Shown here: positions 5 through 63,088 of the stretch, one piece after another
Layout of the letters: each line of letters opens with the position of its first letter
How positions within the stretch are numbered: position 1 is the stretch's first letter
IMG/VR virus record: IMGVR_UViG_3300008267_000092
Coordinates: 24,022 to 88,021 of that record
From: a virus
Lineage: Duplodnaviria; Heunggongvirae; Uroviricota; Caudoviricetes; Crassvirales
Strand: one strand, 5' to 3'
DNA length: 64,000 nt
Position numbers and translations under genes: made by a program
The notes under the pieces: model-generated
Database searches by the model: none
The model's input: the letters and a program-made list of their open reading frames with translations, nothing else
What the model was told of the DNA's origin: nothing

Positions 5-3000
5 ATGTTTACAGGAGATGTTGCATTTTATAAGAATATGATTGATTATAAAAAACGTGTACCTGCAACATATACGGATGGATTACAGTTGCGATTGAAA
101 AAAGGTGAAGAACATTTTACAGTAGCTACAATTGATAAGGTAGAAATAGGTTCACCATACCATAAGGAATTAGTTGAAATGTTAGGTGTTGAAGGTGCTA
201 AACCATATAGTGAAGGTAAGATAAATTCTGCGGATGCTCAAGCTTGGATAACACCTAAAAGGTGGAAGTTTTTAGTTGAACGTTTAGGTAAATGGACTTC
301 GGATCACGACTCATTGTACACTAAAATGATGTCTGATGGTGATCAGTCTTATACAGCTAAAGAATTAAAGATTGCAGCGCAACCTTTAAAAGGTGTATAT
401 TTTTATATGAACGGTAAAACACCAACGTATCTTAAATACTCACAAGCTGTATTGACACCTAGTATGTTAAAAAACTCACCTGGTTTACGATCTATTTATA
501 GTCAAATGGATAAACAAGGTGTTGACGAATTAATTACATTAGATGGCTTTAAAACAGGTTCTCCAAGACCTACAAGAGTACATAATGTTGACGGTACAGT
601 AAAATCTGAAATATCATTTAATACTGAACAGTTATCAAACTATGGTTGGAAATTACAACAAGATTTACCTGTTAAAACATTTAAACAAACTGACGTAGGT
701 TCTCAAATTCAAAAAAATATTTTTGCAGGTTTAATTCACAATTTAGAATTAGCAGGATTTAATTTAGATGGTTCTGAAACAAACGGACAAACAATCTCAG
801 ATAATATTGTAAATATTGTTTCAGGTTTAGTAGATAAAGGTATTTTAGACATTAAAGAGGAATTTGATGTATTTAGAAACGGTGAAATTAAAAACATTAA
901 GGGTTTTTATAAAGCACTTGTTCGTGAGTTGGAAAAAAGAGGTGGTTCTAAGAATGTTATAGACGCTTTAAATAAACAAACTGCATTATATGGTATGCCA
1001 CAATCAATGGATAAGATTGTTAGTGTATTTTCATCTATAATGAATGATCGTTTAATTAAAATTAAAACAAACGGTGGTGCATTTATACAAATGTCTAACT
1101 TTGGTATATCTAAAGAAGAAGGTGATAGTAAAGGTATTTTATGGAACCCTGATATTGAAAATGGTAGTACAACTTATGAACCACGTATTTATACTAAAGA
1201 AAATGGTCGTAAAAGTATAAAACCTGCAGGTATATTAATTTCAGGTTCATTTATTGCAAAATATATTCCTGATTATAAAAAATATAGTGCTGAAGAACTT
1301 TTTAAAGGTAAAGATGGTAATCCACCTATTATTGATAAAAAAATATTAGAAAATTTAGTTGGTTATAGAATTCCTAATCAAGGACTGTCATCAAATGATG
1401 CTTTAGAAATTATAGGTATTTTACCTGAAGAAAACGGTGATACTATTGTAGCATATACAGGTATTACAACTAAGACAGGGTCGGATTTTGATATTGATAA
1501 GATGTACTTAATGATGCCTAATTATTCTTTAGAGGATGATAGATTGGTATATACTACATACGATTCAACGTTATCAAATAAAAAACAATCTAAAGAAGCA
1601 TTACAAAATAGGTTAATTGAACTATATAAATCAGTTTTAACACATCCAAAAGTTATTAAAGATGTAATGACACCTTTAGATAATGATGTCTTAAAAGACG
1701 ATATCGTAGACTTAATACCTTCAGAGTCTTCAGGAACAATGTTTCATTTTGACGCATTTAATGATATTAAATTACGATATGAGTTTATTAATGGTAAAGC
1801 AGGTGTTGGTCAAGAAGCTAATGCTGTAGTTGATGTTAATAGACCTGGTAATTTAAGTATTAATAAATATAATATTGGATGGGGTCATGTTAATGAAAAA
1901 GGTGATACTAAATTAGATAACGAGTATTCTGAAGCATTATCTGAACAAGATTTAAATTATTATAAAGATGCACTTGTTGATATAAAAATAAAAGAGCTTG
2001 AAAAGAAACAGATGCATGTTAATAACGATGTTAGAGAAAAGATAAAAAAAGAGGTTTCTAACTATGTTAATAACGCAGTTAAAAAAATAAAAGTTGGTGA
2101 TTCATTAACTGCGATTCTTAATGCATTTGTGGATATTGCAAAAGATCCTTATATTACAAGAGGTAACTGGACAACATCTACTACAAATACAGGTAACTTA
2201 CTTATACGTGCAGGTGTTCACCCTTTATATGTTACGTCATTTATGGCACAACCTATAATTAAAGAATATATTGAGTATCAAGCAAGTAAAGAATCTATTA
2301 TTACAAAGAATACAGGTGATATTAAAAATAAATTTAAGAAGAATTTAGCAGTAAAGAATCTTGAAAAATTAAACGATAAACATCCTGAGTTATTGAAACC
2401 TTTAGAATTGATTTATCAAAAATTTGCTAAGTCTAATGGTGCTATAAATCCTTTTACAGCATCAAACGCGGCAGAAAGACTTCAAAAAATGTTAGGTAAA
2501 AAAAATACACTATCTGGTGAAGAATTAGAAAATGTATTGATAACATTAAAACGTGAACATGATAGAGTATTTAATGCTGAAAAATTAAATATTACAGATA
2601 GAAAAACTTATAATTTACAACATTATCGTGAACAAATAAAGAATGAGGCTTCTGCAGATTTTCAAATTGCGATATTAGATAAGTTTTACGAATTACAGAC
2701 CGTTAGTAAAGTAGTTAAAGAAAATGTAGATATTTCTAAATTAGATACTAATGGTATGGGTAAAAATGTTAATTCATTATTTAGCACCTTTAATTTAATT
2801 AAACACGTTTTAGATAAGGAGAAAACAGATAGAGTTGGTGTACTTAACGGTTTGGAATCTAAATTTGAAAATACAACTTTAGCTGTATATCATAAAGGAT
2901 TAAAAGAAATTTTAAGAATTGTTCAAGCAAATCCTTTATTATTTCCTCAAGCGGATAATAAAGTTCAAACAATGTTTAATGAGATATCTAATGACCTATA

Positions 3001-6000
3001 TGACACACCTGCAATTGATAAAGATTTAGTAAATGATTTAGAAAAAGAATATTATACTTATGTAATGTCTAATTTTACACCATTTAATTTAAGTTCTGTT
3101 GAAATAAGAAACTTATTAAGTGAATTACCTGTTGAATTTGAAAATTTTAAAAAGGCAAATAAAGGTAAATATGTGGTTATAGATGAGCTTCTAAATAAAT
3201 TTGATAAAAATTTTAAGTTAATAACTTTAAATAACAGAAAAAAATCAAGTTCTTTTGAAGAAAAGTTTACAGATTCTTGGAGAGATTTAATTACAGATCA
3301 TCCTGAATTTGCAGAAAATTTAATTAAATATTCATTTTTAACTTCAGGTTTTCAAATGAATACTAATCAGTTTTTTACATATATTCCCCATGAGTATTTA
3401 TTACAAAATAACATAAATCAATTTATTGTTAATTTTTCTAGACAGGATCAATTCGATTTCCTTGATAAATTTTACTTAAATAACACTGATAATTATAAAT
3501 ATGTACCTAAAGTATTTGATTCTGAAATTCAATCTGAAGATTTAACATCAGGTTTCACTTTAAAACAATCTGATAAAAGTGAAACAGGTAAAGCTCGTTA
3601 TTACGTATCGAGAGATGCTGGTGGAGGTATTTATAAACTAGAAGGGTATGATTCATTTAATAGAGCAATTTATACAAGAATTAAAGCATTAGGTCAAAAA
3701 CGTAAAGGTAGTACAATTGTTGAATATGGTGATCAATTTACAAAATCAAATCTTGAAACTAGTCCTGAATATATCACAAGATTAAAAAATTCAGTAGTTA
3801 CTGAACGTGATAAATATAATCCTAATTTTACTTTAGATAAAATTGCAGATAGAGAAGAAGATGATTCAACTAACGGATTAACTATAGAAGAACCTACTCA
3901 ACCATCTACTAGTATTTCTGAGTTTGATATAGCTGATAAATTATCACCTATAGAACAAAACTTTAAAGATGGTACAGGTGGTAGAAAAATGCAACCACAG
4001 TTTAAAGGTAAATCTACTATGGATCTTATTATATCAGGAGATAGAACTAGAACTACTAGAGCTAAAACTGATATACAAAGAATGACTAAAGATTATGGTT
4101 TATCTAAAATATCAGATCTTGTTGGTAAAGTTATAAGAATGACTGATAATACAGGAAGACAAGTATATACTATGATTACTAATGTAGTTCCATTTACACA
4201 AGAATATCAAGATGCTACGTGGCAAAATGAAGGTTGGGAAAAGTCTGTAACAGATAAACATGTAAATGATTATCCTTATGCAATTGAATTTAAAGTTGTA
4301 GATAAACCTACTCAACCATCTACTACTCAGGTAGAATCAGTTACGACTGAATTAACTCCAGGACAATATGTTAAATATAATGGTGAAACATACATTATTG
4401 TAAAACAGAATGCAAATGGAACATTTCAGATTTTAAATCCTACTTTAGAAGGTCCTTTATCTAAAATATCAGTTTCAAAAGAAAAACTTCAAGCAATCGG
4501 TAAAGAGGCAAAATTGGTTACCTATAAAGGTGTAGAATATTTAGTTACACCTAATAATACAATTATATCTACAGTTACCAATAAGGCGATGAATTGGACT
4601 GAAAATGATGGTAATAGACGTGCTATTTTAGAATTAGCTAATAACAATATCAAATCGTCCGATAAAATTGAAATTCCAACTGTTGAAAAAACTGTAGTTA
4701 GTAAACTTCAAGAAGTTACGATTTTTAAACCTGCAAATAAAGAGCAAGAGGTTGCAATTGAAGCTATTAAGGATTTTATTGAAAATGGTAATCCTAAAGA
4801 GATATTTACTTTAGAAGGTAAAGCTGGTACTGGTAAAACAACGTTAGTTCAAGAGGCATTAGCAGATTCTGTAGAAAAAGGTAAAAATATTCACATTGCG
4901 GCATTGTCACATAAAGCAAAATTAGTTTTAGCTCAAAAATTAGAACAAAGATTTCCTAAAAAAATAAGTAGTAGTAGTATTGCTGGTTTATTAGGAATGA
5001 AAATGAATGAGGAAACTGGTGAGTTTGAAACAGGATTTAGTGAGTTTGAAAGACCTGTAGAATCTGCAGATATTATTGTTATCGATGAAGCATCAATGGT
5101 AAATGAAGAAGCATTATCTTTAATTATGAGTGAAAAAAGATATGGTACTAAAGTTATATTTCTAGGTGATAGAGGTCAATTACCTCCTATTAGAAAATTA
5201 TCGAGTGATGAAATAAGTACAGTATTTGAATCTTCAAACAAAGCAAGTTTAGTTGAACGTGTAAGACAAGGTGAAGAATCTCCAATATTACCATTTGCTG
5301 ATTATTTTTGGGATAATTCAGAATCTGATAAACCTAAAGCGAATCCTATTCCTGAAGGTCAAATAAAAGATTCTTTAACAAGTAAAGGTAATTTAGTATT
5401 TGTAAATAATTTATTTGATGTGTTTGAGGATGTTGTAAGTAGTTTTAAACAGGGTATAGATTCTGGAAACTTCAACATAATTAAAATTGTAACATATAAA
5501 AATGCTACTAGGCAAAATTATAATAAGCAAATTAGAAAATCAATATTTGGAGAAGATGTACCTCAATTTGTGGTAAAAGATCAAATTATGTTTCAAAATA
5601 ATTACATGTCACAAGGTGTTGAATTTTCTAACAGTGATGAATTTTCAATTGAAGCCGTAATAACTTCTGAAAAAAATGGATATAAGGTATTCGATATAGG
5701 TGTTAAAGTAGATCCTACTAAAGATATAATTACTTATTTTTCAGTATTAGCTGAAGAAGATAAGTCTAAATTTAACGAAGAAGTGGCTAGATTATTTGAA
5801 GTGGCTAAAAAAATGGCACCTGGACAACTTAGGAAAATGGCATATAAAAGTGCATGGGCACTTAAAGCTACATTTGCGGAAATAGATTACTCTTATGCAA
5901 TAACATCACATAAATCACAAGGTTCAACATACGATAATGTTATTGTTGATTTAAAAGATATTTATTCTGTAGGTGCAACCACAAACGCATCTAAATCTCG

Positions 6001-6175
6001 TAGTGCTTATACAGGTTTAACAAGAGCTAAAAATACAGCAATTATTATAACAAGTAAGGCTGAAACTAATAGTGACAATGTTAAAAAAGCTTTAAACACA
6101 ATACCTCAAACAACTTTAACTAAAGAAGAGCAGACAAAGGCTGAAGAATTAAAAAAATATTGTAACCCAAGTTAA
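5..6175 (+). CDS. giant multidomain protein (5' partial, >=2056 aa): N-terminal/central region with RNAP-like DxDxD loop, C-terminal RecD/Pif1-like SF1 helicase domain
   Basis: uninterrupted ORF starting at window edge; SDFDIDKM (nt ~1480-1503) resembles the NADFDGDQM catalytic loop of two-barrel RNAPs; C-terminal GKAGTGKTT (Walker A, nt ~4820-4846), IVIDEASMV (Walker B), GDRGQLPPI, SHKSQGSTYDNVIV (SF1 motif VI-like, nt ~5905-5945). Confidence 0.6.
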   Translation: MFTGDVAFYKNMIDYKKRVPATYTDGLQLRLKKGEEHFTVATIDKVEIGSPYHKELVEMLGVEGAKPYSEGKINSADAQAWITPKRWKFLVERLGKWTSDHDSLYTKMMSDGDQSYTAKELKIAAQPLKGVYFYMNGKTPTYLKYSQAVLTPSMLKNSPGLRSIYSQMDKQGVDELITLDGFKTGSPRPTRVHNVDGTVKSEISFNTEQLSNYGWKLQQDLPVKTFKQTDVGSQIQKNIFAGLIHNLELAGFNLDGSETNGQTISDNIVNIVSGLVDKGILDIKEEFDVFRNGEIKNIKGFYKALVRELEKRGGSKNVIDALNKQTALYGMPQSMDKIVSVFSSIMNDRLIKIKTNGGAFIQMSNFGISKEEGDSKGILWNPDIENGSTTYEPRIYTKENGRKSIKPAGILISGSFIAKYIPDYKKYSAEELFKGKDGNPPIIDKKILENLVGYRIPNQGLSSNDALEIIGILPEENGDTIVAYTGITTKTGSDFDIDKMYLMMPNYSLEDDRLVYTTYDSTLSNKKQSKEALQNRLIELYKSVLTHPKVIKDVMTPLDNDVLKDDIVDLIPSESSGTMFHFDAFNDIKLRYEFINGKAGVGQEANAVVDVNRPGNLSINKYNIGWGHVNEKGDTKLDNEYSEALSEQDLNYYKDALVDIKIKELEKKQMHVNNDVREKIKKEVSNYVNNAVKKIKVGDSLTAILNAFVDIAKDPYITRGNWTTSTTNTGNLLIRAGVHPLYVTSFMAQPIIKEYIEYQASKESIITKNTGDIKNKFKKNLAVKNLEKLNDKHPELLKPLELIYQKFAKSNGAINPFTASNAAERLQKMLGKKNTLSGEELENVLITLKREHDRVFNAEKLNITDRKTYNLQHYREQIKNEASADFQIAILDKFYELQTVSKVVKENVDISKLDTNGMGKNVNSLFSTFNLIKHVLDKEKTDRVGVLNGLESKFENTTLAVYHKGLKEILRIVQANPLLFPQADNKVQTMFNEISNDLYDTPAIDKDLVNDLEKEYYTYVMSNFTPFNLSSVEIRNLLSELPVEFENFKKANKGKYVVIDELLNKFDKNFKLITLNNRKKSSSFEEKFTDSWRDLITDHPEFAENLIKYSFLTSGFQMNTNQFFTYIPHEYLLQNNINQFIVNFSRQDQFDFLDKFYLNNTDNYKYVPKVFDSEIQSEDLTSGFTLKQSDKSETGKARYYVSRDAGGGIYKLEGYDSFNRAIYTRIKALGQKRKGSTIVEYGDQFTKSNLETSPEYITRLKNSVVTERDKYNPNFTLDKIADREEDDSTNGLTIEEPTQPSTSISEFDIADKLSPIEQNFKDGTGGRKMQPQFKGKSTMDLIISGDRTRTTRAKTDIQRMTKDYGLSKISDLVGKVIRMTDNTGRQVYTMITNVVPFTQEYQDATWQNEGWEKSVTDKHVNDYPYAIEFKVVDKPTQPSTTQVESVTTELTPGQYVKYNGETYIIVKQNANGTFQILNPTLEGPLSKISVSKEKLQAIGKEAKLVTYKGVEYLVTPNNTIISTVTNKAMNWTENDGNRRAILELANNNIKSSDKIEIPTVEKTVVSKLQEVTIFKPANKEQEVAIEAIKDFIENGNPKEIFTLEGKAGTGKTTLVQEALADSVEKGKNIHIAALSHKAKLVLAQKLEQRFPKKISSSSIAGLLGMKMNEETGEFETGFSEFERPVESADIIVIDEASMVNEEALSLIMSEKRYGTKVIFLGDRGQLPPIRKLSSDEISTVFESSNKASLVERVRQGEESPILPFADYFWDNSESDKPKANPIPEGQIKDSLTSKGNLVFVNNLFDVFEDVVSSFKQGIDSGNFNIIKIVTYKNATRQNYNKQIRKSIFGEDVPQFVVKDQIMFQNNYMSQGVEFSNSDEFSIEAVITSEKNGYKVFDIGVKVDPTKDIITYFSVLAEEDKSKFNEEVARLFEVAKKMAPGQLRKMAYKSAWALKATFAEIDYSYAITSHKSQGSTYDNVIVDLKDIYSVGATTNASKSRSAYTGLTRAKNTAIIITSKAETNSDNVKKALNTIPQTTLTKEEQTKAEELKKYCNPS

Positions 6176-6682: not shown

Positions 6683-9600
6683 ATGGTGTGTCCAAATAAA
6701 AGATTAAAGGCTTGGAAAGATTTAGTTAAAGTTGTAGGGGAAGATAAAGCTTATCTTTTATGGGATACCCATGAAGGAAATGTCCCACAACAATATTACA
6801 ATGAACAAAGTATTAATGAATCTGCTACTTTGGTAGCAGGTTCTAATATTTCTGAAGAAAATTTATTTCAATCTACTGTAGATTTTAATGATTTAATTGG
6901 AAATACCAACGAATCTATTTTTACAGATGGTTTTGAAAATAAATCAATTGATTCTGATTTAGGTAAAATAACTGATATTTTATTTAATGGTAATGTTGGT
7001 AATTTAAGAGTTGAACATATTTTAAATAATATTATAGAAAATGTACCTGATATTACAGAACATACTGCTGAAATTATTAACAGGTCTAAAAAACTTTTAA
7101 CTCGTGCAAATGTTAAAGTTGAATTAGTTAAAGATTCAGAAATGGTGTCTAATAATACTGTAATGCAGTATGAAGCTAATACAAATACTATTCAAATATC
7201 TTTAGATAGAATAAACCAATTTGATTCTAAAACTGTAGTTGTTGGATTTTTACACGAAATTGTACATAGTTTAACGGTACAGGCATTAGCTAAAGATCCA
7301 TCTAAAAGAACATTTTCAGAACAAGAATTAGTTGATGTTGTTGAAAACTTTTTAAAAAAATATAAAGACAGTAAATTAACTGAAGAATACGGTTTTAAAG
7401 ATAGGTTTGAATTTGTTGCAGAATTTTACGCAAATCCTGAATTTAGAGATGCTGTTAAAGCTGAATCAGATATTTGGTGGAAAAAAATAGTTGATGCTAT
7501 TAGGAGATTATTTGATGTTGCTAAAAATCCTGAATACACTAAATTATTTGACACTATTATTAAATATGTAGAAAATGATAATGTTGATTTAGAACATATT
7601 GAAAATTTAGATATAATATTTAGAAAAGAAGCAGAATATAAAAAACCTGAATTTGTTACATTTCAAGATAAATTAGATCGATTAAGTGGTAAAGCTATTG
7701 ATAATATTGCACAAGCTAGAGCTCGTACAGCAGCTTCTAAGAAAGCTAAATCTAAGAAGGATCAAAAGACTCATCTAAAGAATATTGATGACTTAATTGA
7801 GGAAATGGATAAGCTTAGTGAGATTAATAAATTACAAGTAATTGCTCAATATACAAATACATTAGCTAAAACGATTTATCAAATAGATAATGGTATGAAA
7901 CGTCTTTATACTAAAACTAAAGATTTTAGAAAAGAGGATTTACTTCCATTATTACAGAGTTATGAAGAGTACTTATTAGCTTACGATTTAACGAATGAAA
8001 TTAATGAACTTCTTGCTGCTTCTCGTAGAGAACTTAAAGTATTATCTGAAGAAGATCAAAAGTCATTAGATGAGATACGTAAAACACTTTCTTATGCTAT
8101 AAGTAGACGTGATGAGCTTGTTAAAGAATTTGTTGATTTAAAAAGAGAACAAGCGGTTAAGGTTTTTGCTAAACCTGAATATAATACCCAAGTTGAAACT
8201 GATTTTAGAAATAGATTATACAAGGAATATGCACAATTAAATATTCAAGGTGAATCGCGTGATCAGTATGTATCACGAATGTTAGCTACAAGAGATAAAG
8301 ATGAATATGAAAAAGCATTAGTTGCTTCTGCTGAAAAAATGATTAACAATCCTTCTTTAGATATAAGTTCTTTTAAAGCAAAATTTTCGGATCATTTAAA
8401 TATTAGTAGTAAACTTATTCAAATTATAACCAATATTACAAGTGCAGTAAGAGAAAAAATTACATCACAGTATAAGGATTATGATTTAATGTTAAATGAC
8501 CTGTTTAAAGATTTGGTAAAAGAAAAAGGTAATAAAAAACCTTCTGAGGCATTTAAGAATATATATGAGCAAGATAAAGACGGTAATTATTTCTTTAAAG
8601 GTGTGTATAGCATTAAATTTAGAGATATTTATTTAGAAGAATACATTCCATTAAAACAAGCGTTATCTGAAATTACTGAAAAATTAAAATTGCAGGGATT
8701 AACTAAAAAAGAATATCTTACAAATGATGAATATAAACAAGCTGATGCAAATGCAAAAGCTTGGATGAAAAAACATACACTTAAAGATCACAATGACCCT
8801 ACAGGTAAAGCTTGGTATCCTAGACCTATTTATAAGAATGCTGAGGTTACAGGTATGGATAAACAAGTTTTAAAAGAAGCAATCGCTTTAGCTAAACTCG
8901 GACATAAAGAATTTAAAGGTAAAAGGTCGTTAATTAGAAAAACAGGTAATGTCCAATTTTATAAGTTTCCAGCTATTACAAAATCTAATTTTGAAAGAGC
9001 TGTTGAAATGGATGCAAAAGGTATTGTTAAAGATATAAAAGCTGATTTAACTGAAATTAGACCTGATGATATAGGATATGGTGAACCTGTATCTAAAACA
9101 GGTGAATCTTTAAAAAGTATTAAAGTGCATTTTAGAGGTGAATTGAGTCCAGACCAACAATCTTTAGATGTTCTTTCAATACTTCGTAAAGAATATTTAA
9201 ATGTTATTAGTTATAAAGAAAAGTCAAAAGAAGAGGCTTCTATCTTATTAGTTGCTGATATTTCTAAAAATAAAGAATATCTACAAATATCTAAAAAAAC
9301 AGGATTACCATTATTAAATGCTTTTAATAAAAATGAACCTATTGAAACAATGTCAGGTGAATTTACAAATGAGTATTTGAAAATTAAAGGTATTATTGAA
9401 AGAACGGTATATGATACATTTCACGAACATGGTGGTAATTTTAGTGGTGTAGATATAAATAAAATTACAAGTTATGTCAATGGTATGACAGCTACAATCG
9501 CGATGTCTTTTGATATCGCATCAGGTACAGCAAACGTACTTAATGGTTTTACACAATTATTTATTGAATCCGTAGGTGGTGATGTATTTAGTACAAAATC

Positions 9601-10804
9601 ATTACTAAAAGCAGAGGCTAAATATACTTCAGATATGCCTAATATTTTACGTGATTTAAGTAGCCCTGTAAAAACTTCATTTACAAATCAATTATTAGAA
9701 ATGTATGATGTTTTTGGTGGGTTTGACCCTGCAACTCAAGAGTTTATTAGAAATAGTGTTGCTAAAAAATTAGCATCTAGACAAACATTAAATGGTTTGA
9801 ATGAGATGGGTGAACATGCTATGAACTCTGTAGTAACAATGAGTGTATTAGATGGTCTTAAAGTAATGAATGCTGAACATAAATATATTGACAAAGATGG
9901 TAAAATTGTAGATTCTGAAAATGAAGCAGCATCGTTACTTGATATGCTTATATTTAATGACAAAGGTAAGTTGGTAATGAGTGATAGTGTTAAATTTACT
10001 AAACAAAATTTAACTGTCGATTATCATAAGGGTGGTAAAGTTCACGTTAACTTATTAATCAAAAATAAAATATTTGATGTATTTGGTGTATATGATAACA
10101 ACTTTAAAAATGAATTTTCAAAAACTGTATTAGGTAAACTTACGATGATGTTTAAAAACTTTTTCCTAAGTGCTGCACAATATAGATTTACAGGTATTCA
10201 AACATCTTTAAAAAGTAAAGAAGATTTAACTGATGATGATTTAAATTATAACACAGCTAAAAAAGAATATACTGAAGGTACTTATGTCACGTTAATTCGA
10301 TATTTTAAAGAAGCTGTCATACCTGCGTTAAAAAATCTTGAATTAATGTATGTTAAAGAGGTATATAGTGGACTATCTGATCATGAAAAAGCAAACCTTA
10401 AAAAAGTAACGGTTGAAATAATGTTAACGTCTATTATTATACCTGCAATAGGTGCATTGATTGCATCGGCTGCAGGACCAGATGATGATGAAACATGGTT
10501 TATGGTTTATCAATTACGAAGACTTGAATCAGAATTATCTCAATTTAGAAACCCAATTGAGGCAGGTAAGATTATTACAAATCCTATTGCTGCAGTAAGA
10601 TTACTTCAACATGGTTTAAGTTTTGCGTATGAAGTTGCAACACCTTTGGATTTTGCACCAGATAAAGGTGATCATTTCTTTTCATATTTAAATGAAGATT
10701 CTAAACATCAAAACATTTTACTTAAAAAAGGTAAAAAAATAGTTCCAATTTGGTCAAAAATGGATCGTGATTATAAACAACTTTATTCACTTATTAATAA
10801 GTAA
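6683..10804 (+). CDS. giant protein (1373 aa) with HExxH zincin-like metallopeptidase motif and C-terminal hydrophobic segment; probable virion/ejection protein
   Basis: long ORF; VVGFLHEIVHSLT (HEIVH) at nt ~7250-7270; predicted TM helix IMLTSIIIPAIGALIASAAG near C-terminus; coiled-coil-rich central part. Confidence 0.5.
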   Translation: MVCPNKRLKAWKDLVKVVGEDKAYLLWDTHEGNVPQQYYNEQSINESATLVAGSNISEENLFQSTVDFNDLIGNTNESIFTDGFENKSIDSDLGKITDILFNGNVGNLRVEHILNNIIENVPDITEHTAEIINRSKKLLTRANVKVELVKDSEMVSNNTVMQYEANTNTIQISLDRINQFDSKTVVVGFLHEIVHSLTVQALAKDPSKRTFSEQELVDVVENFLKKYKDSKLTEEYGFKDRFEFVAEFYANPEFRDAVKAESDIWWKKIVDAIRRLFDVAKNPEYTKLFDTIIKYVENDNVDLEHIENLDIIFRKEAEYKKPEFVTFQDKLDRLSGKAIDNIAQARARTAASKKAKSKKDQKTHLKNIDDLIEEMDKLSEINKLQVIAQYTNTLAKTIYQIDNGMKRLYTKTKDFRKEDLLPLLQSYEEYLLAYDLTNEINELLAASRRELKVLSEEDQKSLDEIRKTLSYAISRRDELVKEFVDLKREQAVKVFAKPEYNTQVETDFRNRLYKEYAQLNIQGESRDQYVSRMLATRDKDEYEKALVASAEKMINNPSLDISSFKAKFSDHLNISSKLIQIITNITSAVREKITSQYKDYDLMLNDLFKDLVKEKGNKKPSEAFKNIYEQDKDGNYFFKGVYSIKFRDIYLEEYIPLKQALSEITEKLKLQGLTKKEYLTNDEYKQADANAKAWMKKHTLKDHNDPTGKAWYPRPIYKNAEVTGMDKQVLKEAIALAKLGHKEFKGKRSLIRKTGNVQFYKFPAITKSNFERAVEMDAKGIVKDIKADLTEIRPDDIGYGEPVSKTGESLKSIKVHFRGELSPDQQSLDVLSILRKEYLNVISYKEKSKEEASILLVADISKNKEYLQISKKTGLPLLNAFNKNEPIETMSGEFTNEYLKIKGIIERTVYDTFHEHGGNFSGVDINKITSYVNGMTATIAMSFDIASGTANVLNGFTQLFIESVGGDVFSTKSLLKAEAKYTSDMPNILRDLSSPVKTSFTNQLLEMYDVFGGFDPATQEFIRNSVAKKLASRQTLNGLNEMGEHAMNSVVTMSVLDGLKVMNAEHKYIDKDGKIVDSENEAASLLDMLIFNDKGKLVMSDSVKFTKQNLTVDYHKGGKVHVNLLIKNKIFDVFGVYDNNFKNEFSKTVLGKLTMMFKNFFLSAAQYRFTGIQTSLKSKEDLTDDDLNYNTAKKEYTEGTYVTLIRYFKEAVIPALKNLELMYVKEVYSGLSDHEKANLKKVTVEIMLTSIIIPAIGALIASAAGPDDDETWFMVYQLRRLESELSQFRNPIEAGKIITNPIAAVRLLQHGLSFAYEVATPLDFAPDKGDHFFSYLNEDSKHQNILLKKGKKIVPIWSKMDRDYKQLYSLINK

Positions 10805-10810
10805 AAGTCA

Positions 10811-10855
10811 AAAAAAAAGGGGTAGTCTACTTAATTGTAGCTACCCCTTTTTTCA
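10811..10855. terminator. bidirectional rho-independent terminator at the convergent junction of + and - blocks
   Basis: aaaaaaaaGGGGTAGtCTACttaattGTAGCTACCCCtttttt: GC stem flanked by A-run and T-run. Confidence 0.65.
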
Positions 10856-23888: not shown

Positions 23889-24686
23889 TTAATTTGTTAA
23901 AATGTAACTATCTTTTTCAATTTGTCTAAGTAGTAGTTTTGCTAGTTTTCTATCATTGTTATCAATTGCTTCCACTACTTGAGCTGAATATTTATCAATA
24001 TAGTGGGTATGCTTACCGTCTAATACGTGTTCTACAGCTTTTATTGTTTGATCAAATACCCATTTAATCAATGTGTTGTCGTGTATCCAAAAATTAGATA
24101 ATTGACGACATTCTAATCCAAAAAGTTTAGGTCTAAAAGAACCAGCTTTACCATATAGTTCTCTTCTTCGTTCATCGTTATCCAATAATAATGAAGGTAA
24201 TGTTACAAAAATATCAAACATTTTTACAATATTGACAGTTTTTTCAAATTCAGGATCTGGATAACCTATATGAATATGTCCGCCCACACATCTCAAATTA
24301 GTATTTGTATCAGGTTTAGGGTTTATCATTTCCGTATATACGTTGTAATCAGGTTCACAACCAAATAATTGTGCTTGTTCAGATTGCAAATGTATAGGGT
24401 TTATTTCATCTGAAGCTTTTGTAGATAGTTCAAATCCGTGTGAATTTGCAATGACTTCAAGATATTCTTTAACATAATTAATGTTTTCAATATATTCATC
24501 TGCAGTACTACAAGGAGGAATGTTAAATTCAAATGCAATATTATCGGTTTGAATGAAATGACCCTTATCTGTAATTGGATAAGGATCATCTTTAGTTCCA
24601 GGAATTAATCCTACTGCAGATACAATTTCAGTATCATTTTCAATAAATACTTCAGGGTCACTACCTAATTTAATGTCGTATTTCAT
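23889..24686 (-). CDS. GCS2-like carboxylate-amine ligase (amidoligase)
   Basis: KLGSDPEVFIE N-terminal motif and VGGHIHIGYP (GxHxH) typical of glutamate-cysteine-ligase family 2 / phage amidoligases. Confidence 0.5.
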   Translation of the reverse strand: MKYDIKLGSDPEVFIENDTEIVSAVGLIPGTKDDPYPITDKGHFIQTDNIAFEFNIPPCSTADEYIENINYVKEYLEVIANSHGFELSTKASDEINPIHLQSEQAQLFGCEPDYNVYTEMINPKPDTNTNLRCVGGHIHIGYPDPEFEKTVNIVKMFDIFVTLPSLLLDNDERRRELYGKAGSFRPKLFGLECRQLSNFWIHDNTLIKWVFDQTIKAVEHVLDGKHTHYIDKYSAQVVEAIDNNDRKLAKLLLRQIEKDSYILTN

Positions 24687-30015: not shown

Positions 30016-30142
30016 AATAATTCTAATTTAAAGCCATCATATAACAAGTGTTTGCCATCAGTGGCAGGCTTGGGTTTTATTTAATTTTAATTCGGAAATA
30101 TCTAAACTTCCTTTGTATTTGTTGACTTTGTTGTTTTATTTT

Positions 30143-30166
30143 GTCCCCGACATCAATGTCGGGGAC
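30143..30166. terminator. GC-rich perfect hairpin GTCCCCGACAT-caa-TGTCGGGGAC
   Basis: 11-bp perfect stem in AT-rich intergenic region just downstream of 30183..30467 gene. Confidence 0.5.
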
Positions 30167-30182
30167 ATTTAAGTTGTAAATA

Positions 30183-40609: not shown

Positions 40610-41143
40610 TTATCTTATAATATTTTTTATTATTTCTTCAATTTCAGATCGTTGTTCAGTTGTAAATAATGGTTGTTTAATTTTAGACCATTGATTTAAA
40701 CTTTGATTTAAAAATTCACCATACCAACCACTCAAGTTTCCTTGAATAATTTCAAAATCTAAAGAATTATTTTTAACTCTAAAAGATTTTATTTTACAAT
40801 CTTTTTTACCCCAACCTTCATTTAAAGCTACAATATCACCAACTGTAAATATTTCACCGTCACTTAAACGTTTAATTGAATGTATTCTAGCATTATCACA
40901 TTTTAACATAGCTTCAATATATCCACAACCATAATTAGAAACATCTGTTATTGTAGGCTTTATTGTACATAATCTAGCTAAAGATAATATTTCATACTCT
41001 TTTTCAATAACTTCTTCCCAAAATTCAGGATAATCACAACATTTTAAAAAGATAACACCATTACTAGTATAATTTTCAGTGGTAATGATATATCCTAATT
41101 TAGGGCTTCCTGGATAGGTTTTAATTAAAATGTATTTTTTCAT
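40610..41143 (-). CDS. hypothetical protein
   Basis: 177 aa ORF. Confidence 0.4.
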   Translation of the reverse strand: MKKYILIKTYPGSPKLGYIITTENYTSNGVIFLKCCDYPEFWEEVIEKEYEILSLARLCTIKPTITDVSNYGCGYIEAMLKCDNARIHSIKRLSDGEIFTVGDIVALNEGWGKKDCKIKSFRVKNNSLDFEIIQGNLSGWYGEFLNQSLNQWSKIKQPLFTTEQRSEIEEIIKNIIR

Positions 41144-41195
41144 TGTTATTTGTTTTAAATGTTATTATTTAATTCGTGGAGACGATATTTTAATA

Positions 41196-41696
41196 TTATT
41201 TATTAATGTAAGTTCTACCACAAGAAATATCTCGAATTGTAGTGTATGGTAAATTATATTGAATTGCTAAATTTCTTAAATTTAACTTTTCATTATTTTT
41301 TCTACGAGTTTTAATAATATTGTAAATAGTTAAAGCTATTTCATTATTTATTAACATGTTTGGTGGTGTATTTCCTTTTTCAAATCTTTTACCTATTGGT
41401 ACAATCATTCTGTTTTTATTATAACAATCTTTCATATTTTCACTTTGTGTACCTAAAAATAAATGATTAGGATTGACACATTTACGGTTATCACATTTAT
41501 GACAAACATTTAATGTTTTATCTGTAATTATACCATACGTTAACTCATAAGATAATCTATGAGAACTATGTGTTTTTTCTTTTGTTTTAAACGCACCGTA
41601 TCCATTTAATCTGCATGATGCAGTCCATTCCCAACAATCATCTTCTGATTTAATATTTACTTTATCCCAGAATTTTTTAATTTGTTGTTCATTCAT
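41196..41696 (-). CDS. HNH homing endonuclease
   Basis: [23 protein letters not shown] (His-Me finger). Confidence 0.8.
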
Positions 41697-41730
41697 AATT
41701 TATTAAATTTTAATTATTAGGGTGTTATTT

Positions 41731-41788
41731 CGTCTCCAAACATCATAGGATATACCCTGAGTTTGGAGACGGTGGGATTCGAACCCAC
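41731..41788 (-). pseudogene. tRNA 3'-half remnant (T-arm + 3' acceptor strand) fused to an 11-bp hairpin in the 5' leader of the HNH gene
   Basis: reverse complement GTGGGTTCGAATCCCAC-CGTCTCCA...; CGTCTCCAAAC pairs with downstream GTTTGGAGACG; no D/anticodon arm upstream. Confidence 0.5.
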
Positions 41789-42207
41789 GTCGATCAATGC
41801 GTTTGTTATATAATTTTATACAGCTTTTTGTAGTATTTAATCTTTAATGTCCCTTAAACACTACTAAATGTGGACAGCTATGGCAATGTTATACTCTAGC
41901 CAGTGTTGAGTTTGATTTGGGATTAGCGCACACGCGAATTCTAATTTACCAAATCATTTTAAACTATGCTGCCATTAATACTTCTTCTTTAGAAGAGTTA
42001 ATCAATGAAAAAACTTTAGCCATATTGGCTTTTGCTTGATTTTTGCCGTTTAAAATATTCACCTTAGTTTACAGTTATCTCTCTGGCTGAATTATATAAT
42101 TACTGACACAACCTCAAAGCCAGTCGTCCCCTTATTAATTGTTTAAAGTACAATCATAAACTTATTATTAGAAGGTGACACTTAATGTAATCACCTTCTA
42201 TAATTTA

Positions 42208-51430: not shown

Positions 51431-52897
51431 ATGGAAGAAATATATTTTAAAGAGGAAGCTAGAAATAAACTTTTAAGTGGTATAAATAAATTACACGATG
51501 CTGTAGCATCTACAATGGGACCAAATGGTAAGACGGTTATTATAAGTGATGTGTATGGTAAACCTAAAGTAACTAAAGATGGTGTATCTGTTGCAAGAGC
51601 GATTTCATTTAAAGATCCTGTTGAAAATATGGGTGCAGAATTAATCAAAGAAGTAGCAGAACTTACTGTAGATATCGCGGGAGATGGTACTACTACAGCT
51701 ACAGTTTTAGCTACTGCTTTTATTAACAATTTAATAACCTTTGAATCTAAAGACATTAATAAAGCCTTTGATGAAATAATACCTAAAGTATTAGAACAAT
51801 TAAAAATAAATTCTAGAACATTGGAACGTGATAATATTAAACACGTTGCTACAATTTCTGCAAACAACGATATAACTATAGGTGAGGTTATTCAAAACGC
51901 ATATAACCATTCAGATATTATTAAAATTGAAGAATCAACATCTAATAGTGATATATTGGAATTAGTTGAGGGTATGCAGTTAGATGTATCTTATTTATCA
52001 AAAGCATTTGTAAATATTGATCGTAAAGCAGAATGTGAATTGACTAATCCACATGTATTAATTATAGATGGTAAACTTGAGAACTTAAAAGTTTTTGAAC
52101 AATTATTAAACACTGTTGCTGCAAACAACGAATCATTATTAATTATAACAGAACATGTTTCAGAACAAGTATTAAGAATGCTTGAAACAAATGCATTAAG
52201 CGGTAATATTAAACTATGTGTAATTAAATCACCTGGATTTGGACAACATAGAAAAGATTTACTGAAGGATATTGCAAAGTTTACACAATCTACAATTATA
52301 ACAGATTTAAGCAAACCTTATACGTTAAGTATTGCAGGTAAACTGCAGTCTGTAAGAGTTACTAAAAATAATTCTATCTTGGTTAAGGATTCATCAATAG
52401 ATGTTACAGAAGCAATTGCAGATTTAAATGAATTGTCTAAATCTATAGATCTATCTGAACACGATAAGGATTTGATTATCCAACGAAGAGATAGACTTAC
52501 AGGTAAGATATCAATCATTAAAGTTGGAGGTGTTTCTGAGATTGAGATGAAAGAACGTAAAGATAGATATGATGATGCGGTATTAGCTGTAGCCTGTGCA
52601 TTAGAAGAAGGAATTGTACAAGGTGCGGGTTTAGCATTATATCACAGTATTCAAAATGTTTATGATGTAAAATATGATGAAAAAACACCATATCATTTTA
52701 TAATGAAAAGTCTACTTTCACCATATGATAACATTTGTAAAAATGGGACATGTATTCCTGTAATGAGTAATATGTTTGATCAAAACATTATAGATCCACT
52801 TAAAGTTACAAGATGTGCATTAGAGAATGCAGTATCTGTAGCTAAAACAATATTATCAACAGACACAATTATTTTAAATGAGCGTCAATGGAGTTAA
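51431..52897 (+). CDS. groEL: GroEL/Cpn60-family chaperonin (488 aa, lacks C-terminal GGM tail)
   Basis: ARNKLLSGINKLHDAVASTMGPNGKTV...VTKDGVSVARAI...GDGTTTATVLA collinear with GroEL N-terminus/ATP-binding loop. Confidence 0.85.
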   Translation: MEEIYFKEEARNKLLSGINKLHDAVASTMGPNGKTVIISDVYGKPKVTKDGVSVARAISFKDPVENMGAELIKEVAELTVDIAGDGTTTATVLATAFINNLITFESKDINKAFDEIIPKVLEQLKINSRTLERDNIKHVATISANNDITIGEVIQNAYNHSDIIKIEESTSNSDILELVEGMQLDVSYLSKAFVNIDRKAECELTNPHVLIIDGKLENLKVFEQLLNTVAANNESLLIITEHVSEQVLRMLETNALSGNIKLCVIKSPGFGQHRKDLLKDIAKFTQSTIITDLSKPYTLSIAGKLQSVRVTKNNSILVKDSSIDVTEAIADLNELSKSIDLSEHDKDLIIQRRDRLTGKISIIKVGGVSEIEMKERKDRYDDAVLAVACALEEGIVQGAGLALYHSIQNVYDVKYDEKTPYHFIMKSLLSPYDNICKNGTCIPVMSNMFDQNIIDPLKVTRCALENAVSVAKTILSTDTIILNERQWS

Positions 52898-63053: not shown

Positions 63054-63088
63054 AAAGGAAGAAGACATAAATCTTCTTCCTTTTTTTA
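63054..63088 (+). terminator. rho-independent terminator AAAGGAAGAAGA-cataaa-TCTTCTTCCTTT + T7
   Basis: 12-bp stem + U-tract. Confidence 0.7.

Follow-up and report, generated by a model that had tools for sequence, protein, structure and literature searches.

Bacteriophage T4 carries SegB, a free-standing GIY-YIG homing endonuclease, in its tRNA gene cluster; its site includes the TΨC stem-loop motif, and it is absent from close relatives and inherited together with the neighbouring RNA genes (PMC2330249). MobE is likewise a free-standing homing endonuclease of T4 (PMC2790892). Genes for transfer-messenger RNA (tmRNA) have been described in phages of the mycobacteriophage Bxz1 group and Bacillus phage G (PMC4131195) and in Cellulophaga phage Calle (PMC8776804). 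Neither PMC4131195 nor PMC8776804 mentions an association of phage tmRNAs with HNH genes, and literature searches for a link between phage tmRNAs and homing endonucleases returned generic phage genome papers only. We analysed a 64,000-nucleotide (nt) stretch of a Crassvirales phage (IMG/VR record IMGVR_UViG_3300008267_000092, positions 24,022 to 88,021; hereafter the window, whose own numbering is used), in which an HNH endonuclease gene lies directly behind a tmRNA gene. Our reading, to which we assign a probability of about 85%, is that the HNH gene was inserted as a mobile cassette after the last nucleotide of the tmRNA. What is new is a putative group of HNH homing endonucleases tied to the 3' ends of phage tmRNA genes, together with a leader complementary to the acceptor strand and with deviant T-loops.

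A first-pass annotation had described, in front of the HNH gene, a T-arm and a 3' acceptor strand fused to a hairpin. The T-arm (41788..41772), acceptor 3' strand, hairpin and HNH open reading frame (ORF; 41696..41196) are all real and lie on the minus strand, where the order from T-arm to HNH start is …GACGTGGGTTCGAATCCCAC CGTCTCCA AAC TCAGGGTATATCCTATGAT GTT TGGAGACG AAATAACACCCTAATAATTAAAATTTAATAAATT ATG…. The features of the locus are the following.

42131..41764, minus strand: complete tmRNA gene (ssrA), 368 nt (ARAGORN and Rfam RF00023)
42125..42131, minus strand: acceptor 5' strand GGGGACG, pairing with CGTCTCC, G3.U70 included (sequence)
41964..42047, minus strand: tag reading frame GKNQAKANMAKVFSLINSSKEEVLMAA plus stop codon (ARAGORN; frame conserved in relatives)
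41788..41772, minus strand: T-arm GTGGG-TTCGAAT-CCCAC of the tRNA-like domain (sequence and Rfam alignment)
41771..41764, minus strand: acceptor 3' strand CGTCTCC plus discriminator A, the end of the tmRNA, doubling as 5' arm of the leader hairpin
41731..41771, minus strand: leader hairpin CGTCTCCAAAC – UCAGGG UAUAU CCUAUGA U – GTTTGGAGACG, with an 11-base-pair (bp) outer stem and an inner stem (-23.3 kcal/mol)
41185..41763, minus strand: mobile cassette of ~579 nt, a 67-nt leader plus the HNH ORF, absent at empty sites (alignment with L025)
41196..41696, minus strand: HNH endonuclease ORF, 166 residues (Pfam HNH_3 PF13392; PHROGs endonuclease/HNH families)
41176..41184, minus strand: CGTCTCCAC, 9 nt left over from the tmRNA 3' end as it was before insertion (acceptor strand, A, C), aligning with the L025 tmRNA end
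40610..41175, minus strand: native spacer (41144-41175) and conserved gene (40610-41143, 177 residues, phrog_11079), directly 3' of the tmRNA in empty-site phages

ARAGORN made a single tmRNA call in the window (42131..41764, minus strand, tag GKNQAKANMAKVFSLINSSKEEVLMAA*), and Rfam RF00023 matched 42131..41763 over its full length (model positions 1-374) with 55.3 bits, the gathering score being 47 (E 5.7e-19). The gene starts with GGGGACGACTGGCTTTGA and ends …CGTCTCCA|AAC, with no encoded CCA. Its tRNA-like domain has a 7-bp acceptor stem with G3.U70, a T-arm and discriminator A, all present; G3.U is the alanine identity pair. Among relatives the acceptor stems covary (ACG/CGT, ATG/CAT, TCG/CGA, GTG/CAC, GCG/CGC), the T-stem has two-sided changes at 5/5 pairs, and homologous tags in more than ten genomes keep the motif ANMxxV[FH][SN][LI][LI]N. 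What had been taken for half a tRNA consists of the T-arm and the acceptor 3' strand of an intact, apparently functional tmRNA, and the 5' partner of that strand, GGGGACG, lies 368 nt upstream. The earlier remark that D and anticodon arms are missing was literally true but misleading, since the element is the 3' part of a tmRNA with its 5' partner at 42131; no such arms stand beside the T-arm because tmRNA architecture does not include them.

The first-pass annotation had suggested that the T-arm and acceptor strand were left over from a tRNA gene destroyed by HNH insertion. The lack of a D or anticodon arm nearby would suit such a remnant, as would the lack of an ARAGORN tRNA here, and ordinary phage genes for tRNA-Ser and tRNA-Ala contain the identical 25-nt stretch of T-arm and acceptor. 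It is at exactly this point, however, that a full-length tmRNA ends, with the 5' strand and G3.U 368 nt upstream; the sequence leading up to the T-arm belongs to the tmRNA body, and the insertion starts only past the last nucleotide and leaves the gene intact. ARAGORN found no tRNA anywhere in the 64-kb window and called the tmRNA instead, and HNH-less relatives carry the same tmRNA, not a tRNA, at this locus. The tmRNA call and the full-length RF00023 match refute the remnant, whose probability we regard as negligible. Equally, a chance likeness with no tRNA gene in relatives was not borne out, as related genomes carry a t(m)RNA gene at the same position; that the HNH gene sits beside a tRNA-like gene and that the hairpin uses its acceptor strand both held. 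Exact 25-nt matches in IMG/VR were ordinary tRNA-Ser and tRNA-Ala genes in arrays (L004-L006) and were set aside as irrelevant. As this case shows, it is easy to see a broken tRNA where there is the tRNA-like domain of a tmRNA, and the oddity of half a tRNA has here become an annotated gene pair.

Rfam at its gathering score missed the tmRNAs of L031, L035, L020 and L015, and ARAGORN missed those with odd T-loops in L033-L037; because each program missed tmRNAs of relatives, their ends were set by explicit pairing rules. A census of IMG/VR loci (L127-L241) was collected with the tmRNA-internal motif AAGCTGTATAAA(N)TTRTA alone. Among the matches listed, 87 of the 115 loci are tmRNAs of this lineage, with covarying acceptor and T stems. 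The lineage motif AAAAGCTGTATAAAA…GTTCGAWTC had 0 matches in 185,579 bacterial and archaeal species genomes, and by these motif searches the lineage appears to be large and phage-specific. The window itself is a phage genome with genes for a terminase large subunit, a major head protein, ribonucleotide reductase and a GroEL-like protein (PHROGs). Its GenBank phage matches were solely tmRNAs, those of Cellulophaga phages Calle_1 (annotated as tmRNA), phi38:1, phi40:1 and phi14:2; a megablast comparison of 24 kb from the window with GenBank phages returned a 54-nt tmRNA match only, with no close sequenced relative.

The insertion was located by comparison with phages that have an empty site. In L022 and L025 the tmRNA end CATCTCCAC is followed by a spacer of ~30 nt (TAAATAAACTAACAATTTAAAATAAATATT) and then by a homolog of ORF 40610-41143 (MKYKLIKEYPGSPKL…). 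The alignment with L025 shows ~580 nt that are additional in the window, and past the HNH stop codon CGTCTCCAC|GAATTAAATAA aligns with the L025 tmRNA end and spacer, reading CGTCTCCAC|GAATTAAATAATAAC…ATG. Because the tmRNA of L022/L025 directly precedes the same downstream gene, we place a ~579-nt insertion right after the discriminator base. L199, the empty-site twin of L035, is a further empty site. The 8-nt sequence CGTCTCCA occurs three times in 64 kb, as compared to 0.22 expected, and always at this locus: at the tmRNA end, inverted in the leader, and past the HNH gene. In 85 of 85 HNH-less census tmRNAs, among the matches listed, the base after the tmRNA end is C (CTCCA|C), as it also is in further HNH-less relatives, L022 and L025 among them. 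The window has A behind the functional end (CTCCA|AAC) and C behind the downstream copy; for this reason the downstream copy is taken to be the pre-insertion tmRNA end. It would have been left behind if a genome without the cassette suffered a break upstream of the acceptor strand and the break was mended on a donor whose downstream context differed. In such a repair the donor tmRNA end and cassette would be copied at the left end, and the right end would be joined without homology, leaving the recipient's CGTCTCCAC and spacer in place.

The tmRNA of the window is a mosaic in comparison with that of L007, being near-identical except for the tag module (alignment A4: window 41740-42131, L007, L025, L126, L031). 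The tag module of the window is of the L025/L031 type and that of L007 of the L126 type. The T-stem of the window, GTGGG/CCCAC, differs from that of L007 (GGGAG/CTCCC) at 4/5 pairs and resembles that of the HNH-bearing L126 (GTGGT/ACCAC). Mosaicism and the likeness to L126 are consistent with repeated recombination in this gene.

The tmRNA 3' end is directly repeated at the two borders of the insert, and the copies could also be read as attL and attR of a site-specific integration, as with genomic islands at bacterial ssrA, and the first-pass annotation had considered an att-like site. Genes for tmRNA are classic integration sites. But the insert is only ~579 nt long and encodes the HNH nuclease alone, with no integrase, the repeat is 8-9 nt, and the replicon that carries it is itself a lytic-type phage genome. 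Moreover, the direct repeat was found in the window only; the sister insertions L035, L117, L126 and L031 have no downstream repeat. We consider integration scarcely credible; the short repeat is better read as the leftover of the recipient's tmRNA end. An intron at the tmRNA 3' end, of group I or another type, with the CGTCTCCA copies as exon junctions and the HNH ORF inside, is just as hard to believe. It would account for the 8-nt repeat flanking the insert and for the pairing of the 5' exon end just inside it, like a group I P1 helix, and a group I intron is known in the T-loop of a bacterial tmRNA. However, no Rfam intron family matched at E ≤ 1 in 41100-41800, the non-coding flanks of the ORF (67 nt and ~10 nt) are too small for a ribozyme core, the hairpin offers no G.U at a potential splice site, the tmRNA has already reached its end before the insert starts, and other HNH-bearing loci have no downstream repeat.

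A 12-nt inverted repeat, complementary at 11/12 positions (TGGAGACGAAAT … ATATCGTCTCCA, 41177-41188 and 41727-41738), flanks the HNH ORF in the window only. It could reflect pairing of the HNH mRNA ends or short terminal inverted repeats.

The 166-residue ORF product matched PF13392 (HNH_3) with 35 bits, the cut-off being 24.8, and C/H/N residues are invariant across 26 homologs. An AlphaFold model had a mean predicted local distance difference test score (pLDDT) of 61.7, with the nuclease domain at ~50 and a confidently modelled C-terminal three-helix domain (residues 118-158). A sequence search of the PDB with the protein gave no match. Homologs numbered 1541, and an identical protein is on record on a 94-kb contig.

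Genomic context was looked up for 12 of the closest HNH homologs and was readable for 11 (P0014 gave no DNA), all at 56% identity or more. Ten of these proteins, 58-80% identical to that of the window, are each encoded immediately 3' of a tmRNA end: P0002 (L117), P0004 (L031/32), P0006 (L118), P0007 (L033/34), P0009 (L119/120), P0011 (L126), P0013 (L035/36), P0017 (L121), P0019 (L122) and P0022 (L123/124). Several of the tmRNAs score 66-77 bits in Rfam. The exception, P0024 (L125, 696-801), directly follows a tRNA-Met with an odd T-loop. The more distant HNH gene of L049 is also directly 3' of a tmRNA. Among 60 more distant HNH_3 loci a t(m)RNA neighbour was present in two only, L049 and L078, where a related HNH gene lies inside a 13-gene tRNA array (1319-2052); members of the wider family may be directed at t(m)RNA 3' ends of any kind. 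Across ~14 distinct loci the HNH insertion is always directly past the tmRNA discriminator base or the encoded CCA.

The presence of the cassette is sporadic. In the census, which is unbiased for HNH, 2 of 87 tmRNA loci among the matches listed carry the gene, as do 0 of 30 loci found by DNA pattern or neighbouring gene. The tmRNAs closest to that of the window are all HNH-less (L007, 87.6% identity; L025, 74.6%; L020, 71%), whereas the closest HNH proteins (78-80% identity) adjoin tmRNAs only ~66% identical to it. The genes downstream of the cassette vary between loci. From its domain, and because of the sporadic distribution, the fixed insertion point and the incongruent HNH and tmRNA relationships, we infer that the HNH protein is a free-standing homing endonuclease, by analogy with known ones as to both activity and homing. 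A family with empty sites, insertion variants and a candidate T-loop target offers a system for the colonisation of essential structured-RNA genes by selfish nucleases without inactivation.

At the boundary of tmRNA and HNH gene lies an inverted repeat, CGTCTCCAAAC / GTTTGGAGACG, whose arms (41771..41761 and 41741..41731) are complementary at 11/11 positions. The first-pass annotation was right that the acceptor strand and its extension pair with a downstream arm and slightly off in placing it 20 nt away, the loop being 19 nt. The inner stem pairs UCA with UGA and GGG with CCU. The fold has -23.3 kcal/mol and z = -5.8, and 0 of 200 shuffles were as stable. Comparably strong perfect hairpins number ~8 in the window, as compared to ~0.7 in Markov simulations; these counts come from a perfect-stem scan, which replaced a generic inverted-repeat listing dominated by A+T-rich imperfect repeats. 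The hairpin ends 35 nt upstream of the HNH ATG, and in the predicted minimum-free-energy fold of a read-through precursor it forms at the expense of the acceptor stem.

In the seven leaders of the window type, the 3' arm pairs with the local acceptor 3' strand and 3-6 following bases, as given below.

Window: CGTCTCCAAAC / GTTTGGAGACG, perfect
L035: CACCTCCAAAC / GTTTGGAGGTG, perfect
L121: CACCTCCAAGATT / AATCTTGGAGGTG, perfect
L031 and L118: CATCTCCAAAC / GTTTGAAGGTG, one G.U and one C.A
L117 and L126: CACCTCCAAAC / GTCTGAAGGTG, two mismatches

Over the 14-pair helix of these seven loci (alignment A3), 93.8% of positions are paired and four pairs are changed on both sides, a pairing equalled by 0 of 500 shuffles and in no slid register, with the caveat that the seven sequences are related and that the shuffle control ignores shared ancestry. 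The inner stem covaries too (GG/CC versus AG/CT). A contiguous stem sequestering the whole acceptor strand is present only in window-type HNH-bearing leaders and in 0/15 HNH-less loci. The L033-type subgroup has a different hairpin directly past the encoded CCA, with a compensatory change in L122; in the L123-type leader the stem uses only TCCA and the extension, and L049 has no hairpin after its tmRNA. Judging from these predicted folds, a hairpin at the tmRNA/HNH boundary is nearly universal, with acceptor pairing as one of its variants. Searches for the leader pattern CTCCAAACTCA..TATATC..TGATGT gave 0 matches in IMG/VR and 0 in GTDB species genomes.

Several explanations of this hairpin were weighed. 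A simple transcription terminator of the tmRNA would be in keeping with the many HNH-less relatives in which a hairpin and U-tract follow 3-5 nt past the tmRNA end (e.g. L155, L196, L208, L210, L217). In the window, however, no U-tract follows the stem (GAAAUAACACCC) and the hairpin was not among the results of a terminator scan, whereas the genuine terminator of the window, at 10813-10853, has U-tracts. The empty-site relative L025 lacks any hairpin, and termination at the leader hairpin would silence the HNH gene. We therefore rate a terminator as quite improbable.

Alternatively, the T-arm and hairpin might form a functional tRNA-like minihelix, an idea also raised by the first-pass annotation, resembling a permuted tmRNA and recognised by ribonuclease (RNase) P, RNase Z, the CCA-adding enzyme or SmpB. 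Rfam tmRNA_permuted (RF04321) did match 41788..41726 with 29.9 bits (E 7.5e-5 to 3.5e-4; model positions 36-98 of 213), the matched region comprising T-arm, 3' strand, loop and 5' strand. Starting as it does exactly at the first acceptor nucleotide, the hairpin stem would continue the T-stem as a stacked helix; a separate element laid out in a similar way is present in L007, and a mycobacteriophage with only the tRNA-like domain of a tmRNA is known (PMC4131195). The score, on the other hand, is below the gathering score of 47 and covers part of the model, and the arm is followed by the HNH ORF and no tmRNA body. The G3.U identity pair is replaced by A-U in the hairpin; the discriminator and the next 3 nt are paired, unlike in normal RNase P and RNase Z substrates; and the other HNH subgroups lack the layout. 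We regard a functional minihelix as improbable. The defining features of an intron, an att site, an intrinsic terminator and a permuted tmRNA were each looked for at the locus and were not found.

The main alternative is a hairpin without function, a by-product of DNA events: break repair, for instance, would have duplicated the target in inverted orientation, quasi-palindrome correction would have kept the copy perfect, and the hairpin would be carried as a passive passenger. Copying of the opposite strand would give what is seen in the window, where the leader arm is the exact Watson-Crick complement of the acceptor strand, with A-U where the acceptor stem has G.U. The arm GAAGGTG of L031/L118 suits a CACCTTC acceptor better than their own CATCTCC and looks like a fossil of a former host; a mismatch is tolerated in four of the seven leaders, and the L049 subgroup has no hairpin. 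Against a passenger stand compensatory changes in the unconstrained extension (AAAC/GTTT versus AAGATT/AATCTT) and in the inner stem (GG/CC versus AG/CT), as well as two changes in the window arm that exactly match its different acceptor sequence. A tolerated G.U pair fits pairing of RNA rather than DNA, and the other subgroups have retained a hairpin in this position although its sequence differs, L122 showing a compensatory change. On balance we think a functionless hairpin unlikely.

Instead, we tentatively favour, at somewhat less than even odds, an RNA element acting on read-through transcripts, i.e. a tmRNA/HNH mRNA boundary, a processing site, or a means of insulating or dampening HNH expression. 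A Bacteroidetes-type -7 box lies 33 nt upstream of the tmRNA and none between the tmRNA and the HNH ATG, and a sigma-70 promoter scan was uninformative (25 sites versus 26 expected). The HNH gene, apparently without a promoter of its own, is probably transcribed by read-through from the tmRNA. In the read-through transcript the leader arm GUUUGGAGACG would pair with the acceptor 3' strand and AAC, in competition with the acceptor stem.

The T-loops suggest what the nuclease might recognise. The canonical TTCRANN is found in 79 of the 85 HNH-less census loci, among the matches listed. Departures from it occur at 9/15 HNH-bearing and 6/85 HNH-less loci listed (Fisher p = 9e-6), and at 4/9 versus 6/85 when each loop type is counted once (p = 0.0066), with the loci phylogenetically non-independent in this test. 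Loci with odd loops include the following.

TATCGTAT: L033, L034, L037, L119, L122 and L182
GGCAGAA/G: L035 and L199
TTCAAT: L117 and L213
TGCAAYT (TGCAATT in the HNH-bearing locus): L121 and L220

Three of the six deviant HNH-less loci (L199, L213, L220) share their odd loops with HNH-bearing L035, L117 and L121. Our hypothesis is that the nuclease reads T-loop DNA and that mutated loops would give immunity or resistance. Such nucleases may force phage tmRNAs to tolerate non-canonical T-loops, which is testable.

A possible course of events is as follows. The HNH enzyme would recognise the conserved T-loop/acceptor DNA of cassette-less phage tmRNA genes, a target suggested by the analogy with T4 SegB and by the mutated T-loops of many cassette-bearing tmRNAs, and would cut or nick it during co-infection. 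The cassette would then be copied in through recombinational repair, and its position just outside the mature RNA would keep the tmRNA functional. A more speculative extension, which we consider doubtful, is that the leader is a cis "anti-acceptor": it would turn the end of the read-through transcript into a permuted-type tRNA-like domain, RNase P, RNase Z or RNase III would free the HNH mRNA, and T-loop drift would be immunity. If this were true, the anti-acceptor might hold a fraction of the ribosome-rescue RNA inactive until processed, HNH expression and tmRNA maturation would be mechanistically coupled, and the endonuclease would drive tmRNA T-loops off the near-universal TTCRANN as immunity. 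The acceptor-complementary leader is in any case a testable case of a possible coupling between RNA maturation and the expression of a selfish gene.

A number of points weigh against this picture of a tmRNA gene with an inserted homing cassette and its leader. The T-loop of the window itself is canonical, which leaves its self-immunity unexplained. In the RF00023 alignment, which spans pseudoknots PK1-PK4, the posterior probability is low in the middle of the tmRNA (accuracy 0.57) and several pairs are non-standard. The leader covariation comes from a small sample and carries the caveat of kinship given above, and four of the seven leaders have a C.A mismatch, two of these with a second mismatch. 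Acceptor pairing is not obligatory in the HNH family, given the other hairpin of the L033 type and the absence of one in L049. The stem is followed by the tail GAAAUAACACCC and not by a U-tract, and is thus no classical terminator. The absence of a Bacteroidetes-type -7 box in front of the HNH gene is weak evidence for a missing promoter, as the phage RNA polymerase may use promoters of another kind. Endonuclease activity, target and homing are all predicted rather than experimental.

The tmRNA tags of this phage lineage are unusually long, 22-36 residues (window; L001, L007, L009, L014, L015, L022, L028, L031, L037, L118, L126), where bacterial tags have ~10 residues of the ALAA type. They share a motif of roughly A-Q-[IV]-x-A-N-M-x-x-V-[FH]-[SN]-[LI]-[LI]-N and end in MAA, VAA, IAA, FAA or VGV. 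Their length and conservation suggest a function beyond that of a C-terminal degron, and the role of long tags in infection is a question raised by this lineage.

Other elements were seen near tmRNA genes. In L007, ~300 nt downstream of a standard tmRNA, a second T-arm (AGGGGTTCGATTCCCCT) is followed by TCATCTCAC, a loop and GUAGGUGAAAUAGUUU (3649-3726). This element, a weak match to Rfam tmRNA_permuted (17.8 bits, E 0.19), may be a tmRNA-like gene of the permuted type or one with a tRNA-like domain only. Odd tRNA-like genes of ~95 nt (e.g. GATTGAGTGGCGGAATGGTAGACGC…GGTTCAAATCCTGTCTCAATCA) recur close behind the tmRNA/HNH locus, namely past the tmRNA in L020, past the HNH gene in L033/L034/L119, and in L037 (2022-2118), L187 and L015 (2941-3130). 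ARAGORN called the one of L037 a tRNA-Thr(agt) of 97 nt and gave tRNAs with the unusual anticodons att and act in L015.

The perfect-stem scan returned one further feature beside the tmRNA gene.

42169..42200, minus strand: perfect 10-bp hairpin UAGAAGGUGA-12 nt-UCACCUUCUA without a U-tract, between the upstream ORF and the tmRNA 5' end

Together with the leader hairpin it brackets the tmRNA gene with two of the few strong hairpins of the window. Other strong perfect hairpins lie at 10813-10853, 30142-30167 and 63054-63083; the first, which has A/T tracts and separates convergent genes, is a bidirectional terminator, and the second an 11-bp G+C-rich hairpin, TGTCCCCGACA-TCAA-TGTCGGGGACA. The GroEL-like chaperonin gene (51431-52897, plus strand, phrog_5725, E 1.5e-122) is just upstream of the terminase gene, and two ORFs of the window are very large (5-6175 and 6683-10804).

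Compared with the phages already known to carry one, the window likewise has a complete phage-borne tmRNA, to which the Cellulophaga phage tmRNAs are detectable homologs; its lineage differs in tags of 22-36 residues with a conserved internal motif. The order of T-arm, acceptor 3' strand, loop and acceptor 5' strand is that of the permuted tmRNA precursor RF04321, but the match is sub-threshold, no tmRNA body follows the 5' strand, G3.U is lacking, and a one-piece tmRNA already includes this T-arm.

Genomic islands and prophages integrate at the 3' end of bacterial ssrA. Like them, the cassette is a mobile element lodged at a tmRNA 3' end without disrupting the gene, and in the window the end of the gene stays behind as a short second copy. 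Unlike them, it is 0.6 kb long, has neither integrase nor att sites and resides in a phage, and break repair is likelier than site-specific recombination. In T4, mobE and I-TevI are transcribed by read-through from the upstream host gene, and a leader RNA hairpin that hides the ribosome-binding site limits their expression. The window cassette would share a read-through-type arrangement with a leader hairpin, whereas its hairpin ends 35 nt before the ATG and takes one of its arms from the upstream RNA gene, whose functional 3' strand it is.

Among characterised systems SegB comes closest; it is also a selfish nuclease gene among phage tRNA-type genes, and by analogy the same logic would apply here. 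The present system differs in its HNH_3 domain, its presumed tmRNA target, an insertion point fixed past the discriminator and an acceptor-pairing leader, and the activity of its nuclease is a prediction.

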